Positions 2,475 to 23,878 of a stretch of DNA of 32,000 nt are shown here, piece after piece. Source of the stretch: Patescibacteria group bacterium. GTDB taxonomy: Bacteria > Patescibacteriota > UBA1384 > XYA2-FULL-43-10. The position numbers and the translations under genes were made by a program. The notes beneath the pieces are model-generated. The model was not told the origin of the DNA. It made no database searches and was given only the letters and a program-made list of their open reading frames with translations. The number at the start of each line of letters is the position of its first letter. Within the stretch, counting starts at the first letter, position 1. Location: NCBI GenBank assembly GCA_041674405.1, contig JBAYVT010000003.1, forward strand, positions 90,001 through 122,000, in the 5' to 3' direction.

Positions 2475-2668
2475 CGCGAGCTCATCATAAATTTCTTGCT
2501 ACAATTAGCATTGTACCACTCCGCTACAATAATAAAAGTAGAGTAAAGCACCTTCTTGTGGTCGTGCAAATTTATTTTAGCGAGAGATGAAAGAGAAAAT
2601 GGTAATGTAATTTTGCGTTTATGATAATCAGCATTGTAGCACCACCAATGCAAGCGTATATTTAAAGC

Positions 2669-3031
2669 ATGAAAAAATATGCAACGGTTGAGGATTATAT
2701 TTCTTCATACGATCCTGAAACTCGGGAGAAATTGGAATTGATGCGGAAAATTATTAAAGAAGCCGCACCGGAAGCCGTCGAATCGATCAGCTACGGCATG
2801 CCTGGTTATAAACTGAACGGAAAGCAGTTTCTCTACTTCGGCGGATTTCCTACCCACATCGGTTTTTACCCCCTGCCGTGTGCGATCAGAGAATTTTCCC
2901 ACGACATTAAGAAATTCAAACACTCCAAGGGGGCAATTCAATTTTCCCTTGCTGAACCTTTGCCGATAGGGTTAATAAAAAGAATGGTTAAGTATCGAAT
3001 AAGTGAACTGGAAGATAATAACTCGTGTTAA
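2669..3031 (+). CDS. DUF1801 / YdhG-like small protein
   Basis: 120 aa. The motif ISYGMPGYKLNGKQFLYFGGFPTHIGFYP is typical of the YdhG/DUF1801 family. A TATATT -10 box lies 6 nt before the ATG. Confidence 0.65.
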   Translation: MKKYATVEDYISSYDPETREKLELMRKIIKEAAPEAVESISYGMPGYKLNGKQFLYFGGFPTHIGFYPLPCAIREFSHDIKKFKHSKGAIQFSLAEPLPIGLIKRMVKYRISELEDNNSC

Positions 3032-3693
3032 TAAATATAGAGGAACCGATTATAAATTATCTTTCGAATCTATACAATCTACCCGGGACGGTCAGCTACT
3101 GCGAGCAAGCAATCGGCCACATAATCAAACGGCCATTTGATACCGGTGGCAATATTGTCTTTCTAATTGTCGGGATAATAATTTTATTGGTGGGCAGAAA
3201 CAAAGCACTCGCTAGAGCCTTCGGTTGGACGACAATTTTGATCTGGCTTCTTTCATCGATCTGGGATGCAACTGCTAGTTTTCTCTTTCAGATTTTCGAT
3301 TTCACCGGAATGTTTATTTTCGTAACATTGCTTTTATTTTTGAATTTCGAGCGAATGGGGTTAAAAGTGGCTAAAATTTATCGCTGGCTGGTTGTGATTC
3401 TCGGCGCGGCGATATTTTTGGTATTTGGTGGACTTTCGCCTCATGTTTTCTTCGGCGCATTGGTTTTTGCCGTCATAATTACTGAATTTTTGGCGAGGCA
3501 AAAATATTCAAGAAAACTTTGGTACTTGGGCTTGGCTTCTTTCGCCACCGGATTCATATTTTGGATAATTGATATGAATAAACTCATTTGTGACCCGACA
3601 AAAATTTTCTCTGGCCGCAACTTAGAGCACCTATTTTTCTCGATAGCAATATATCTTCTGTGTGTACATTATAGTAAGATTCAAGAAGAATAA
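3025..3693 (+). CDS. Polytopic membrane protein (possibly ceramidase-like, weak)
   Basis: 222 aa with about 6-7 TM segments. The N-terminal CE...RPFDTGGNIVFL is loosely reminiscent of alkaline ceramidase family membrane proteins. Start codon is uncertain. Confidence 0.5.
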   Translation: MLINIEEPIINYLSNLYNLPGTVSYCEQAIGHIIKRPFDTGGNIVFLIVGIIILLVGRNKALARAFGWTTILIWLLSSIWDATASFLFQIFDFTGMFIFVTLLLFLNFERMGLKVAKIYRWLVVILGAAIFLVFGGLSPHVFFGALVFAVIITEFLARQKYSRKLWYLGLASFATGFIFWIIDMNKLICDPTKIFSGRNLEHLFFSIAIYLLCVHYSKIQEE

Positions 3694-17390: not shown

Positions 17391-17430
17391 AAAAAGAAAC
17401 CGCCCGTGCCAGCATAGCTGACACGGACCG
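17391..17430 (-). terminator. Rho-independent terminator of the 369-aa GC-rich gene
   Basis: Minus-sense CCGTGTCAG c tatg CTGGCACGG, 9 bp including one G-U pair that is valid only on the minus strand. TTTCTTTTT follows 4 nt (GCGG) downstream. Confidence 0.6.
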
Positions 17431-17464: not shown

Positions 17465-18574
17465 CTACCCACCTTCCGGGCTGGTCAGGACCTCCTCAAT
17501 GACCAGGATTGACCTCTCCAGATCAAGGCCATCCAAGATAGCCTCACATTCGTTCAGAATCAGCCTGGCGCCCTCCATCGCCGTTGTCTCTCCTGTCCTC
17601 TGAGTCTTAAGAGACTCGATCCGGGCACGAAGGGTTTCGATCTCTCCCTCGATTCCCTCGATCTCGTGATCAAGGCGGTCAACTTCGAGACGATGCCCCT
17701 CGATTTCTTCTCGCACCTTGTCGGACGCTTCCTTCAAGTCCTGGTACGGACCAGAGGCAAGAAATCTGTGCATCCACTCGAGACACGCCCGGGATTCGCC
17801 ATCATTCGGCCTGCGCCCAAGCATCTGCGAGATGGTGCCAAAGGCACAAGATGTGAGAGAGTAGTGCCCGTCCACGCGACACAGATCCCGCTCCTTCACG
17901 CGAGCAACGGCATCACGCACACCCTCATTGGTCACTCGGCTCGGTGACCCAAGTATCTCGCCAAGGGCCCTCCGTGCGGCGCCCTTGACTTGGCCCTCGG
18001 TCAGCACAAGCCTACTCTTTGTAGTCATCCCGCGAATGATCTCGTAGAGCACGAGCCCATCCTGATCGCTGAAGCGCAAGAGTGCTTCCATTGCTGCGTC
18101 GTGTTCGGCTTCCTCGGAGTTGGGTGGTAGGACCTGTTCCTGTTCGGTGTGCTCAATCTCCTCAGTCTCATCAACCTCGAGGGCCTTGCCAGTCACGACT
18201 GCGTCGAGGCGGTTGAGCAGTTCGATGATCTGTGCCGGGCTCGGGCCATTGCTATCGGTGCTATAGACCCGGTAGGTGAAAGTGCCATGCATGGCCCGCC
18301 GGGGCATCTTGCACCTGATGAGGGCGTAATCCCGATCACCGGGATTGTCTACGCGCACTCCCCAGACACGATCCTCTTTCGGGCCACTTGTGGTGTCCAC
18401 ATCTGGTATCGAGATGGCCTTAAAGGGTCCGTGAAGGCCGGCTTCATCGAACTTCCCAGCTAGCCATCTCGGAAAACCAGGTGGCGACCACGACCCTGAC
18501 GGGTGTCTGGCACTCCCGACGACCTCTACGCTCGTTGTTCCTACCATTGCTTCGAACTGTCTACGTTTTGCCAA
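17465..18574 (-). CDS. GC-rich orphan protein (369 aa) with C-terminal coiled coil
   Basis: TTG start 6 nt after GGAGAGGTGA. Heptad-like C-terminus (EEIEGHRLEVDRLDHEIEGIEGEIETLRARIESLK). No family recognised. Composition differs clearly from the flanks. Confidence 0.7.
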   Translation of the reverse strand: MAKRRQFEAMVGTTSVEVVGSARHPSGSWSPPGFPRWLAGKFDEAGLHGPFKAISIPDVDTTSGPKEDRVWGVRVDNPGDRDYALIRCKMPRRAMHGTFTYRVYSTDSNGPSPAQIIELLNRLDAVVTGKALEVDETEEIEHTEQEQVLPPNSEEAEHDAAMEALLRFSDQDGLVLYEIIRGMTTKSRLVLTEGQVKGAARRALGEILGSPSRVTNEGVRDAVARVKERDLCRVDGHYSLTSCAFGTISQMLGRRPNDGESRACLEWMHRFLASGPYQDLKEASDKVREEIEGHRLEVDRLDHEIEGIEGEIETLRARIESLKTQRTGETTAMEGARLILNECEAILDGLDLERSILVIEEVLTSPEGG

Positions 18575-18735
18575 AGCGGTTCACCTCTCCCTGAAAGCGT
18601 TGGTACGGCAACACACTTATACCACAAAAAGCCAAAATTGACCAGCATAATAGCTGATCTTATTGCTAGCGATTAATATGAAAATGCTAAAACCGAAAAA
18701 AGGTCAACAAAAATATTTTAATATTGAGGTTGTTC

Positions 18736-19014
18736 TTAAATCCGATTGATCTTTAAAACTGAATCTTGCAAAGAGGCTTCCACTTCTTGCCCGATTTCCA
18801 GATTTAAATTTTGGCGCAGGGTTTTCGTCATACCAATGAATTGATCAATTGAACCATCAATAATAATGGCAGATAATCCATTAATAATTGATTTACCCTT
18901 ACAAACGCCGAGATTCTTTTGATTCTTTGGGCTTAGAGCACACAGAGGAGTGCTTTTGACATCTTTAAATTTTTTTAACGTCTCTTTCTTAAAACCACGA
19001 ACGATTAGTTTCAT
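18736..19014 (-). CDS. Small AT-rich hypothetical protein (92 aa)
   Basis: ORF with host-like composition lying between the two GC-rich genes. The tail ...IGMTKTLRQNLNLEIGQEVEASL is vaguely like a small beta-barrel (AbrB/CDC48-N type). Weak. Confidence 0.45.
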   Translation of the reverse strand: MKLIVRGFKKETLKKFKDVKSTPLCALSPKNQKNLGVCKGKSIINGLSAIIIDGSIDQFIGMTKTLRQNLNLEIGQEVEASLQDSVLKINRI

Positions 19015-19214
19015 AATTCTCCTTTGAATTTAAATATTTGTACAAAGAATAATAATATTTCACTACTTTACATAATAACAGAAATATTGTTTTACTTAGC
19101 CAATGGTTCAATAATAGTCATTTGATCAATAATATTTCATTTACTATATTTCTCTGGTATAAGCATATTATGGTTGTCTCGACGTTATCCTAAAGGAAGG
19201 ACTGGTGGATACGA

Positions 19215-20591
19215 TTGAAAAAGGTACCGACTAACCGTAATCCGAGGAGAGGCAAGCTGGAAGGAGAGGGAAAGACCAAGCGGCTGTACCATGCAGTCGG
19301 CAGAGGATTTGGGGAGGTGGTGATCGTAGAGCAGAAGAACACGATCACCAAGCACAACGACCCCTCCCAGACCGAGGAGTTCGAGTCTAAGGGCCGCTGT
19401 TCCACGACATTCGCCTCGCGGGTTTTCGAGCTGCTCACCGCGGCCGGAATCCCCAATGCCTTCATTCGCCAGACGGGCGACAACGAGTTTCTCATGCACA
19501 GATGCAAGATGCTGGGACTCGAGGTCGTCATCCGCCGTCTCGCGATGGGCAGCTACTTTGACCGCAACCCCCACATGAGGCCCAAGGCTGGTGATCCGGC
19601 TCCGCGCCTCCACCGGCTGGTCATCGAGATGATGCTGAAGACCACGGAAGGGATCGTTCCGCTCTTGAACGGAAGCACGCACGACACCGGCATCCGCGAT
19701 CCCAAGCGGCAAGATCCGCTCATTGTGGATCCATCGGCCGAGATCTGGAAGCTCGCACACCCGCATCTCCCGCTCTGGGACACCGAGTCCTACATCGGCG
19801 AGATCGAGGCCAATCGCGTGATGGATCCTGTCCATCTCGAACAGATCGAACGGCTGGCGCGCCTCATCTTCCTTCTCCTGGAGTCAGCACTCACCAATGT
19901 GGGTAGCCGACTGGCGGACCTCAAACTCGAGTTCGGCTTCCTGCCAGACGGAACACTGGTGGTCGCCGACGTGATCGACCCGGATTCGCTCCGGCAAGCC
20001 GTGTGGAACAACGATCTGGACGCGTGGATAGACTTGAGCAAGCAGAGCTTCCGGGACGGCATAGGCCTTGAGGAAGTCGAGCGCAAGTACCTGAACGCGG
20101 CCATGCTCGCGGAGAGGATCCGTGTTCCTCGCCAAGCGCTCATCACGTGGATAGGATCGCCCAAGGACACCCACCCGCCGGTGGACAGTAAGCTACTGCT
20201 TCACACCGGCATCACCCATGAGAAGGTCATGATCTCGGGACACAAGCAGCCCGAGCACGTTCTTCCCGAACTCGAGCACCTCCTCGCCCAGTACCCCGAT
20301 GGCGGCGTGATTATCGCCAAGGTGGGGATGTCCAACGGCTTGGGCCCGATCCTCGCCGCTCGCACCTCTCTGCCCGTGATCTCGGTCGTCGCCAACGCGG
20401 CCCCGGACGATCACGGGGTAGTACACCTGGAAGATGCGTGGAGTTCGCTTCGCATGCCCTCAGACGTGCCGAACCTCACGGTGCTAAGCGAGAAGAACGC
20501 CATCACCGCGGCGCTGAACATCCTTGCCCGGAAGGATCCGGTGCTGTACATGTTCCGGCAGTACGAGATCGAGAAGCTTGCGGCGGTGTAA
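19215..20591 (+). CDS. PurC-PurE fusion: SAICAR synthetase-like N-domain plus AIR carboxylase (PurE class II-like) C-domain, PAICS-like
   Basis: N-domain motifs: GEGKTKRLY, LEVVIRRLAMGSY, LADLKLEFG, VADVIDPDSLR. C-domain motifs: IGSPKD, ISGHKQPE, GMSNGLGPILA, LPVISV, AWSSLRMPS. These are collinear with human PAICS as I recall it. TTG start after AAGGAAGGA. Confidence 0.8.
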   Translation: MKKVPTNRNPRRGKLEGEGKTKRLYHAVGRGFGEVVIVEQKNTITKHNDPSQTEEFESKGRCSTTFASRVFELLTAAGIPNAFIRQTGDNEFLMHRCKMLGLEVVIRRLAMGSYFDRNPHMRPKAGDPAPRLHRLVIEMMLKTTEGIVPLLNGSTHDTGIRDPKRQDPLIVDPSAEIWKLAHPHLPLWDTESYIGEIEANRVMDPVHLEQIERLARLIFLLLESALTNVGSRLADLKLEFGFLPDGTLVVADVIDPDSLRQAVWNNDLDAWIDLSKQSFRDGIGLEEVERKYLNAAMLAERIRVPRQALITWIGSPKDTHPPVDSKLLLHTGITHEKVMISGHKQPEHVLPELEHLLAQYPDGGVIIAKVGMSNGLGPILAARTSLPVISVVANAAPDDHGVVHLEDAWSSLRMPSDVPNLTVLSEKNAITAALNILARKDPVLYMFRQYEIEKLAAV

Positions 20592-20647
20592 CCGCCAGCG
20601 AGCCCGTACAAAGTTCTTCCATCCCGGAAGACAATAGCAGCAAACGC

Positions 20648-20676
20648 TTCAGGCGGCCCGACTCGGGCCGCCTGAA
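20648..20676 (+). terminator. Strong GC hairpin downstream of the PurC-PurE gene (terminator-like, no T-run)
   Basis: TTCAGGCGGCCCG act CGGGCCGCCTGAA, a 13-bp perfect stem. Confidence 0.45.
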
Positions 20677-20970
20677 ATGCTACAGAATCAAAATTCTCAT
20701 TAATTATCCGATGATATACCGACATAAAATACATTAAGAGAAGGAGGCCCGCGCAGTACAGTCGGGCCTCGTTGCTCGGCGGATTACCGCCATCGGTCAC
20801 CTTCTTCTCTCCTTGTGATTCTTTAGCGCCCAACGAATGAGAAACTATTAAAAATTAGACGAAATATTTCCAGCAGAATCAACAATACTAAGTTTATTGT
20901 TTGGCATATGCAAAAGTATTTCAGCATGACTGCAAAAATTGAAATAGAGAATATATTTGAAAACGATAAT

Positions 20971-21783
20971 TTACTTGCGATATTTTTTCAGCAATCTATC
21001 GCTTACCGGAACAATTATCATCAGCCCGGCTAATAGTCCCAGGACCAGCCACTTATTTTCGGAGACAGGATTTTGCGGCCCGGTTTCCGGCAAAGCTGTT
21101 ATCGTAGTAGTTGTAGCGGGTGTAGCAGGATTGTTAACAACAATTCTAACTGTTGACGAAAGATAAGTGTCCTCGCCTTCAGCCTTTGCCTTGTCGAGAT
21201 CAAATACCCCCGCAATCCTTTCTGCATCTGGACCAACAACATAAAATGTGCCAGTTATTACTGTCTGATCGGGAACGTCAGATTTTATTCTAGCCGAGAT
21301 TGACCCAATCTCGGCGTCCATCGTGGTGTCCAGACCATTACTCAAAATAATTGCTTCGGGCGAAGAATATTCGAAAGCATTAGTGTCAAGGTCCAAATCT
21401 CCCATTCCAGAGCCGAAAATATCAAGATTCTCAAGATATTCCGCGTTTGTGAAAGAAACGCCAAAAATCGGGTTTATGCTAGTGTTACCCTCGACCCGAG
21501 TGAGTCCGAGAAAGGTCAAATTATCACCAGGACTTGCTGTCAACGTTTCGCCAAGGCCACCGGCCATTTCCGGATTGGCCGAATAGTCGGAGTAGTTATA
21601 CAAATCATCATTTGTCGCCTCAAGAAAACAATTCTCTATCTTGCACACCAATGCGGCCATATAGAGAGAATTCCCCTCTCCTAAGTCGTAGTATGTTTCC
21701 GGAGTAGCGCCAGCAATCGTGGGAAATAATGAACTTATAGCCATAGCGATCATCGTAGTCCAGACTAGACAAAATTTTTTCAT
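20971..21783 (-). CDS. LPXTG-anchored surface protein (sortase substrate)
   Basis: Signal peptide MKKFCLVWTTMIAMAISSLFPTIAGA. C-terminal LPETG, a hydrophobic stretch, then a KKYRK tail. Confidence 0.8.
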   Translation of the reverse strand: MKKFCLVWTTMIAMAISSLFPTIAGATPETYYDLGEGNSLYMAALVCKIENCFLEATNDDLYNYSDYSANPEMAGGLGETLTASPGDNLTFLGLTRVEGNTSINPIFGVSFTNAEYLENLDIFGSGMGDLDLDTNAFEYSSPEAIILSNGLDTTMDAEIGSISARIKSDVPDQTVITGTFYVVGPDAERIAGVFDLDKAKAEGEDTYLSSTVRIVVNNPATPATTTTITALPETGPQNPVSENKWLVLGLLAGLMIIVPVSDRLLKKYRK

Positions 21784-23002: not shown

Positions 23003-23878
23003 TTATAACCCAATTTTAACCAGAACAACACCAAAAATTAGGATTAAGCTGCCAATAATTGTTTCAAGTTTTGGCTTATCTTTGAAAAAAATAAAGCTGA
23101 AGAGCAGAGCAAAGAAAACCTGCGATCGAAAAAGCGCTGTGACAATTCCTACGTTTCCACCGCCTATCGATACAAATCCCAAAATATTGCCCATTGCGAA
23201 TAACACTCCCAGGGCAAGTAATACCCATATATTCATTGAGATCTGAGATATTACTGCGCTTCTTCTGGCAAATAAATAAGGCAACAACCCAATGATTATT
23301 ACCATATTTTCTATGAATAATGTAAAAATGACGTTTTTCGGAAATGTTCCTAGAATTGCAATTTTGTCGAAGACTGAAACAAATCCAAGCGCGATAACTG
23401 AAATAAGCATTAAGAAGGCATATTTGTTTTTTACTAGAATTTTGAATGGTTCAAGTAATCCCTCTTTTGCAGTACTGACATTTATTGTATAAATTCCGAC
23501 AAGCGAAACCATGCTTCCCGCCAGAGAAATCAGGGAAGGTCTTTCTGAAAGCGGCGGCAAGAATGCCAGTGTCATGGTGACAATCGGACTCAAAATAATT
23601 ATTGGATATATTTGAGATATGGGAGCATCTTTGATCGCTCTAAATTGAGTAATTCTCGATAGTGTATAGAAAATGGTTGAACATAGTACGCCAACAATAA
23701 ATAGGACGCTGAGATTTGGAATCCCATCTTTGAGAGCAAAATAAGACATTAGGGTAGTCGAGATCACAATCATCGTCCAGAACAGAATGACTGGGTCGAC
23801 TTTATTTAAAATTCTTTTGTTTAGAACAACAAGAATTCCAGATACGAAAGCGGCAGATAGAGCAATATAAAACCACAT
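23003..23878 (-). CDS. EamA/DMT-family transporter
   Basis: 291 aa with about 10 TM segments in two similar halves, typical of the drug/metabolite transporter superfamily. Confidence 0.75.
   Translation of the reverse strand: MWFYIALSAAFVSGILVVLNKRILNKVDPVILFWTMIVISTTLMSYFALKDGIPNLSVLFIVGVLCSTIFYTLSRITQFRAIKDAPISQIYPIIILSPIVTMTLAFLPPLSERPSLISLAGSMVSLVGIYTINVSTAKEGLLEPFKILVKNKYAFLMLISVIALGFVSVFDKIAILGTFPKNVIFTLFIENMVIIIGLLPYLFARRSAVISQISMNIWVLLALGVLFAMGNILGFVSIGGGNVGIVTALFRSQVFFALLFSFIFFKDKPKLETIIGSLILIFGVVLVKIGL

Follow-up and report, generated by a model that had tools for sequence, protein, structure and literature searches.

A divergent, GC-rich member of the PurC-PurE fusion family on a Patescibacteria contig

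In animal PAICS (structures 2H31 and 6YB8 from human, 4JA0 from silkworm), an N-terminal PurC domain, the synthetase of succinylaminoimidazole carboxamide ribonucleotide (SAICAR), is joined to a C-terminal PurE domain, a carboxylase of aminoimidazole ribonucleotide (AIR), with the class II motifs SxHK and SNGLGP. A class II PurE is found unfused in Treponema denticola (3RG8), and the E. coli type consists of a class I PurE, the mutase of N5-carboxyaminoimidazole ribonucleotide (N5-CAIR), together with PurK and a stand-alone PurC. PurC-PurE fusions are also encoded by Patescibacteria, where JGI labels them phosphoribosylaminoimidazole carboxylase / SAICAR synthase. The gene described here, purCE, lies in a stretch of 32,000 nucleotides from a Patescibacteria group bacterium (hereafter the window), which is positions 90001-122000 of the 152,002-bp contig ENA ERZ27247358 k141_137659. 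It is a divergent, GC-rich member of the fusion family, which is widespread among Patescibacteria and already annotated in databases, and its product is probably the Patescibacteria counterpart of PAICS, the bifunctional enzyme of purine synthesis in animals.

Like animal PAICS, the purCE product has PurC at its N-terminus and PurE at its C-terminus, aligns over the full length, and shares the catalytic residues and both class II motifs; PAICS is its top match by sequence and by structure. It differs from animal PAICS in sequence (approximately 31% identity to the human protein), in an insertion of approximately 40 residues in the PurC domain (approximately residues 125-185), in the substitutions R331->M, S276->K and A302->G (all three typical of the whole bacterial fusion family) and W214->L, and in being bacterial and nested in a Patescibacteria clade. 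With the other Patescibacteria fusions (P0006-P0120; L003-L080) it shares architecture and phylum at 43-49% identity, but it forms a small subclade of its own with P0002, P0004 and P0005, lies outside any pur operon, unlike many of them, and exceeds its neighbours in G+C content at third codon positions (GC3) by 0.36, the largest excess seen in a family in which a weaker excess is general. The T. denticola enzyme is the top PurE-only structural match in Foldseek and shares the predicted PurK-independent chemistry, but is unfused and only weakly similar in sequence: taken by itself, the PurE half of purCE reaches 22.9 bits against it, compared with 44 for PAICS and no more than 29 for class I mutases. 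With the E. coli type, purCE has the folds and the universal catalytic histidine in common.

Domains and active sites of the purCE product

Both halves of the fusion exceed the gathering thresholds of their Pfam models: SAICAR_synt (PF01259) matches residues 18-285 with 116 bits (cut-off 20, E 3e-33), and AIRC (PF00731) matches residues 326-444 with 59.4 bits (cut-off 30, E 3.7e-16). A sequence-only reading of the window had proposed a PurC-PurE fusion collinear with animal PAICS; the two significant profile matches and the full-length alignment to PAICS agree with it, and all the motifs that it quoted are found in the translation and align with human or insect PAICS. Among relatives of solved structure, insect PAICS is the best match by sequence (E 2.9e-36) and human PAICS the next (E 4.3e-35), with weaker matches to stand-alone PurC (approximately 1e-14) and class I PurE (approximately 1e-5). 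In an AlphaFold monomer model built from an 18-sequence alignment (pLDDT 86, pTM 0.88), human and insect PAICS lead the full-length structural matches (E 9e-31, template modelling (TM) scores 0.59-0.64), the top structure in Foldseek being human PAICS 6yb8 (E 9e-31, TM 0.59/0.64, 466 alignment columns), and the modelled PurC half matches the stand-alone PurC structures 4fe2, 2ywv and 3nua with target-normalised TM scores of 0.86-0.91. Among 18 fusion-family sequences, 84 alignment columns are invariant.

The human PAICS sequence used for comparison agrees with 42/42 numbered residues. These 42 residues of the human active sites were listed from PMC9376930. Every checked catalytic or ligand-binding residue of PAICS is present in both sites of the purCE product. 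In the PurC half, GKTK, E103, K142, K237, E239, D252, D257, S258, R260, K276 and R280 are kept, the conserved human ligands of carboxyaminoimidazole ribonucleotide (CAIR), aspartate and magnesium being E97, K131, K191, E193, D207, D212, S213, R215, K228 and R232. In the PurE half, G314, S315, D318, S341, H343, K344, G371, S373, N374, G375 and L376 are kept, and H343 aligns with human H303 as the universally conserved catalytic histidine.

The motifs of the PurE half are GSPKD, SGHK (S341-G-H343-K344) and VGMSNGLGP, where E. coli PurE has GSKSD, SAHR and AHLPG (GGAAHLPG in class I enzymes). The sequence-only reading had singled out GSPKD and the SNGLGP block as unusual for a bacterial PurE; both are present, and the SGHK and SNGLGP motifs are those of class II (PAICS-type), not class I. 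In the phosphate loop GSxSD, the glycine, the first serine and the aspartate are kept and the second serine is lysine, at a position that varies in the family (K, S, D, R) and reads GSPAD in insect PAICS. The PurE half is accordingly annotated as a predicted class II AIR carboxylase from its SxHK and SNGLGP motifs. Such an enzyme would convert AIR and CO2 directly into CAIR, without PurK or ATP, after which the N-terminal PurC would join aspartate to CAIR with ATP and magnesium to give SAICAR, so that the two predicted activities would be consecutive steps of de novo inosine monophosphate (IMP) synthesis.

The fusion family and its purine-gene context

In a scan of one genome per species, at least 574 stretches encoded a relative of purCE, and the best 80 loci were kept; the related loci searched amount to 1.35 Mb with 65 fusion loci, approximately 62 of them with flanks. 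The fusion of PurC to a class II PurE is present in at least 574 Patescibacteria species genomes. Hundreds of full-length fusions, mostly labelled Patescibacteria, Parcubacteria, Moranbacteria or Minisyncoccia, lie in the identity range given above, and three close relatives reach 74-78%. In a neighbour-joining tree without support values, rooted on a single eukaryotic sequence, the window protein and its relative from locus L001 form a long branch nested among Patescibacteria sequences. The sequence-only reading had called the protein animal-like; the resemblance is real, but the architecture is standard in Patescibacteria and the protein sits within that radiation. An animal origin was rejected because of this nesting and because identity to the Patescibacteria fusions is higher than the 31% to human PAICS.

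Full-length fusions outside the candidate phyla radiation (CPR) were found in loci L059 (Pseudolabrys sp.) and L076 (Polyangiaceae), in GC-rich genomes, at 36% identity and with the composition of the host. Several family members have labels such as Heimdallarchaeaceae (P0017), Bacteroidetes (P0059) and 'uncultured Gammaproteobacteria'; P0017, P0059 and several of the loci labelled Gammaproteobacteria group among Patescibacteria in the tree, an indication of transfers or of bins with wrong labels.

The family as a whole sits in pur operons. The fusion directly adjoins PurB in 31 of approximately 62 loci, and other genes near it in these loci are a divergent purM-like gene (16), PurL (11), PurH (7), SHMT (6) and FolD (5). 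The purM-like gene (for example, L043 11282-12460) has no Pfam match at 1e-5 and scores 67 bits with TIGR00878, for which the cut-off is 236. When the related loci were searched by tblastn with E. coli PurK and PurE within 10 kb on either side, neither PurK nor class I PurE was detected at any of the 65 fusion loci; two loci have PurK and seven have class I PurE, and PurC is stand-alone in every one of these. Patescibacteria loci with stand-alone PurC and a class I PurE nearby, with or without PurK, are L065, L069-L073 and L077. The restriction of PurK and class I PurE to the vicinity of unfused PurC fits a PurK-independent class II carboxylase in the fusion, and the fusion on the one hand, and PurK with class I PurE and stand-alone PurC on the other, appear to be mutually exclusive ways to CAIR. 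A complete de novo purine module has been reported in 32% of a set of 399 metagenome-assembled genomes (MAGs) from the CPR (PMC11608272). No paper specifically describing a bacterial or CPR PurC-PurE fusion was found in the literature.

Several observations weigh against assigning the window gene to this pathway. Its product does not reach the equivalog cut-offs of NCBIfam for purC (75.6 bits against 189.9, with a model trained on stand-alone bacterial PurC) or purE (55.2 bits against 149.6); the replacement of PAICS W214 by leucine is specific to the window subclade; and identity to most of the family is no higher than 43-49%, with the protein on a long branch. No other pur gene is encoded in the 32-kb window, as the sequence-only reading had correctly claimed, and the only one found in the 52 kb of contig inspected is a PurN gene beyond the right end of the window, which is not adjacent to purCE. 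Approximately half of the related loci, by comparison, have pur neighbours. An alternative that would account for these features is a repurposed or orphan enzyme, which would make or bind a related nucleotide metabolite, such as a modified nucleotide or a signal resembling SAICAR, in a genome without the rest of the pathway; that purCE has its promoter motif in common with a divergently transcribed, GC-rich ORFan lacking assigned function could be read in the same sense. The sequence-only reading had offered this alternative, but it is unlikely: all catalytic residues of both sites are kept, purifying selection is strong (dN/dS approximately 0.15), a bona fide PurN is encoded on the same contig (TIGR00639, 232.9 bits against an equivalog cut-off of 150.1), and the relatives of purCE belong to pur operons. 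The PAICS-type assignment is therefore preferred.

Composition, expression signals and age of purCE

The G+C content of purCE is 0.606 and its GC3 is 0.79, against a range of 0.31-0.58 in 28 other open reading frames (ORFs) of the window, none of which is higher (z = 5.1), and approximately 0.43 in the neighbouring genes. Cumulative-sum analysis places the GC-rich run at approximately 19241-20672, and the composition changes abruptly, no more than tens of bases from either end of the gene. The strongly atypical composition reported by the sequence-only reading is thus borne out, and its hand counts (43/60 G+C at 19561-19620 and 17/60 at 23281-23340) are exact. The excess is present in all 17 codon families examined (for example, AAG is 0.92 of lysine codons against 0.29) and in the usage of CTN for leucine and CGN for arginine, and it extends to the amino acids (GARP 0.275 against 0.22, FYMINK 0.22 against 0.32). 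With all codon families and the amino-acid composition shifted, the pattern is that of a GC-rich genome rather than of selection on particular codons. Translational selection as the sole cause of the high GC3 was rejected, since the excess spans G- and C-ending codons as well as amino acids; the ordinary GC3 of RecA, sigma-70 and PPDK also counts against it.

Across the family, purCE has a higher GC3 than the neighbouring ORFs in 88% of loci and ranks first among the ORFs in 35%, and the window gene is the extreme case. In loci L003-L080, purCE, purB, purM-like and purH genes have GC3 above their neighbours (median z 1.0-3.4), and purL, folD and glyA show no such excess. On the contig of the window, a GC-rich signature is common to three dispersed biosynthetic genes, purCE, PurN (GC3 0.67 against approximately 0.45 in its neighbours) and a DapL-like (LL-diaminopimelate-aminotransferase-like) gene, which forms a single-gene GC-rich island (G+C 0.61, GC3 0.81) and matches NF006756 with 423 bits, below the cut-off of that model. 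The sequence-only reading had granted that many similar GC-rich genes and a complete pur pathway in the genome would make purCE ordinary, and this holds in part, with the GC-rich PurN and the GC-rich DapL-like gene added to it. After its closest relative, the next-closest named relatives of the contig PurN are from Coriobacteriia and Actinobacteria MAGs on Mb-scale contigs (60-64% identity); this handful of labelled hits, considered without a tree, suggests a possible import of PurN from Actinomycetota.

The promoter of purCE is of the host type. The AT-rich extended -10 element that the sequence-only reading had noticed upstream of the gene is present, 3 nt from the position given there. It reads TGGTATAAG, a sequence that the window contains exactly twice where 0.13 copies would be expected by chance, and host genes use promoter elements of the type TGATATAAT. 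Relatives of purCE were available from two other samples, L001 (JGI 3300050015) and L002 (Logan SRR26844649); the promoter is conserved as TTCTGGTATAAG in L001 and as TTCTGATATAAG in L002. A GGTG(A/G)-type motif is located 4-6 nt before the conserved TTG in the window, L001 and L002, and is present at the neighbouring ORFan as well, so that promoter, GGTG-type ribosome-binding site and TTG start are kept together in all three lineages. Nucleotide homology between L001 and the window extends over 19153-20612, covering promoter and gene, and is found again in a 92-aa ORF. Beyond position 20612 the 3' tail of purCE is without counterpart in L001. This tail (20589-20835) has a minimum free energy of -88 kcal/mol and a folding z of -5.5. 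The first of its hairpins is not followed by a T-run, the consensus terminator scan made no call there, and the tail has no match in Rfam; the hairpins past the stop codon are nonetheless probable terminators between convergent genes, judging from their position and folding. Together, the conserved promoter, ribosome-binding site and TTG and the 3' hairpin would drive transcription, the start of translation and termination. No riboswitch was found upstream of purCE, a scan of the whole window against Rfam having yielded only tRNA-Ser.

The sharp composition steps would also be expected if a gene of a GC-rich organism had been joined to an AT-rich contig during assembly or binning, as the sequence-only reading had considered. 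The probability of such a chimera is negligible. L001 and L002 contain the same gene, at 0.62-0.65 G+C, with the same AT-rich upstream region and with flanks of approximately 0.40 G+C, and the recurrence of the same composition step in two independent assemblies excludes an assembly artefact. In addition, an identical protein is encoded on contigs of 152,002 and 151,989 bp from different sources, four separate GC-rich genes with host-type promoters are found on one contig, and PurN is syntenic with UDG in a relative.

Much of the evidence just described, namely a GC3 of 0.79 against approximately 0.43 and a GC-rich signature in every codon family and in the amino acids, could be explained by a recent horizontal insertion, in which a foreign GC-rich gene came under a native, AT-rich promoter and has had too little time to ameliorate. 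Consistent with this are the position of purCE relative to the 92-aa gene, which differs between the window and L001, the transposase adjoining the gene in L002, and the Actinomycetota-like relatives of the contig PurN at 60-66% identity. The insertion put forward by the sequence-only reading is nevertheless very unlikely. Promoter, ribosome-binding site and TTG start have been conserved with the gene in three lineages, the protein is nested among Patescibacteria, and no potential donor was found, its relatives being other Patescibacteria and none outside the subclade exceeding 49% identity among 5.8 billion protein clusters. Neither convincing flanking repeats, direct or inverted, nor an integrase or att-like sites were detected: from 17.2 to 21.0 kb only short, chance-level repeats and the promoter inverted repeat were detected, no integrase is among the neighbours of purCE (tRNA-Ser is 3.3 kb away, with host genes between), and a distant BLASTN search gave no match to a plasmid in PLSDB.

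The divergence of the gene also fits a resident. Between the window and L001, the PurCE proteins are 78% identical, with dS 1.0 and GC3 of 0.79/0.77; over the comparisons with L001 and L002, dN/dS is 0.12-0.16 and dS is 1.0-1.8, and each of the three copies has a GC3 within 0.77-0.84. The closest relative of the contig PurN, in L086 (1729-2346), from the same sample as L001, is 77% identical, with dS 1.5 and GC3 of 0.67/0.68, and PurN adjoins UDG both there and on the contig of the window. Housekeeping genes of the same two organisms are similarly diverged: UDG is 86% identical at the amino-acid level, with dS 1.0, and RNase J is 84% identical, with a saturated dS. The dS of PurCE is comparable to that of UDG and below that of the 92-aa ORF (1.8). 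A Pdf fragment of L001 was rejected as a marker of host divergence because, at 42% identity over 66 codons, it may not be orthologous. Since PurCE and PurN have diverged like housekeeping genes, it appears that the common ancestor already had the GC-rich genes and that they diverged along with the rest of the genome. These sequence comparisons strongly favour the view that purCE is a long-standing, selectively maintained resident of its lineage, neither a recent insertion nor an assembly artefact, and the GC-rich signature of these biosynthetic genes is most likely due to an old acquisition from GC-richer donors.

Two points tell against long and selectively maintained residence. A single related organism, short contigs and dS values near saturation underlie the argument from divergence. 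Moreover, the gene in L002 (1348-2331) ends after the PurC domain, at 327 aa, and a transposase of the Transposase_mut family is located at 2581-3387; the PurE half was probably lost to the insertion of an insertion sequence (IS), and its absence suggests that the gene can be dispensable.

The GC-richness of these genes is higher than simple neutral decay in an AT-rich genome would be expected to leave. In a rough model of neutral amelioration towards an equilibrium GC3 of approximately 0.4, with half the pairwise dS assigned to each lineage, even an ancestral GC3 of 1.0 would leave present maxima of approximately 0.64 in PurCE and approximately 0.53 in PurN, against observed values of 0.79 and 0.67; saturation and the NG86 estimator can both shift these figures. 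It is conceivable, though rather doubtful, that the GC-rich signature of PurCE, PurN and the DapL-like gene is actively maintained in an AT-rich reduced genome and is not the fading trace of a transfer.

Neighbouring features and significance

The features of the locus are collected in Table 1. The genes around it in the window are of the common housekeeping kind, for sigma-70, DnaG, a NUDIX hydrolase, Pdf, an EamA transporter, tRNA-Ser, a PEP-utilising enzyme, RecX, RecA and FtsK.

Table 1. Features of the purCE locus and related genes of the same contig (window positions unless another stretch is named)
Feature	Position	Strand	Basis or remark
purCE, bifunctional SAICAR synthetase / predicted class II AIR carboxylase (PAICS-type), 458 aa	19215..20591	+	TTG start
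SAICAR synthetase (PurC) domain, residues 18-285	19266..20069	+	Pfam PF01259
Predicted class II PurE (AIR carboxylase) domain, approximately residues 305-458	20127..20588	+	Pfam PF00731
Extended -10-like promoter element TGGTATAAG of purCE	19155..19163	+	exact motif match
Ribosome-binding region (AAAGGAAGGA ... GGTGGA) before TTG	19192..19209	+	sequence reading
GC-rich hairpin with perfect 14-bp arms, 57 nt past the purCE stop	20648..20676	+	inverted repeat, 100% complementary
Second GC-rich hairpin region, between convergent purCE (+) and 270-aa gene (-)	20740..20800	.	folding
GC-rich ORFan, 369 aa, C-terminal coiled coil, divergent from purCE	17465..18574	-	G+C 0.58, GC3 0.65
Second TGGTATAAG copy (TTTTTGTGGTATAAG on the minus strand), upstream of the ORFan; exact element 18616-18624	18616..18630	-	inverted repeat
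Terminator-like hairpin and T-run past the ORFan stop	17402..17428	-	12 pairs, 8 G-C
AT-rich 92-aa ORF between the two promoters; conserved host gene	18736..19014	-	weak CDC48_N match
PurN, same contig, ~5 kb past the right end of the window, ~17 kb from purCE	L084 2608-3222	-	TIGR00639
DapL-like gene, same contig, ~4 kb past the left end of the window	L083 14951-16126	+	NF006756

A second GC-rich block, at 17.40-18.61 kb, corresponds to the minus-strand ORFan, which has no homologue but itself among 5.8 billion protein clusters and no Pfam or NCBIfam match above threshold. Its promoter is identical at 15/15 positions to L001 268-282, which also faces a leftward GC-rich ORF, so that a back-to-back promoter pair exists in both the window and L001; the two ORFs show no homology to each other (E = 18). 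The 92-aa ORF is 66% identical at the amino-acid level to its L001 copy (L001 1985-2257) and lies on opposite sides of purCE in the two, upstream in the window and downstream in L001, a local rearrangement. The 270-aa protein convergent with purCE (20971-21783, minus strand) has no family match; its signal-peptide-like N-terminus and its C-terminal end, with LPETG followed by a hydrophobic segment and basic residues, suggest a surface protein anchored by sortase.

A suitable annotation for purCE is bifunctional AIR carboxylase (class II PurE) / SAICAR synthetase, with no contamination or chimera flag. No paper was found that states explicitly the use of the fusion by Patescibacteria, the mutual exclusivity of fusion and PurK, or the lasting GC-richness of imported genes. 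Patescibacteria that keep de novo purine synthesis mostly use a fusion of the PAICS type, predicted to save ATP and to be independent of PurK and usually considered the animal solution. If the GC-rich signature were indeed actively maintained, it would imply either selection on the G+C or codon content of particular genes or repeated conversion by, or exchange with, a GC-rich partner, for example an actinobacterial host; such genes would then constitute a class of biosynthetic imports resistant to amelioration, and the weaker GC3 excess of purCE, purB, purM-like and purH genes across Patescibacteria would be the same phenomenon. The persistence of GC-richness in imported biosynthetic genes of this lineage over long divergence is relevant to the extent to which composition can serve for dating transfers in reduced genomes.

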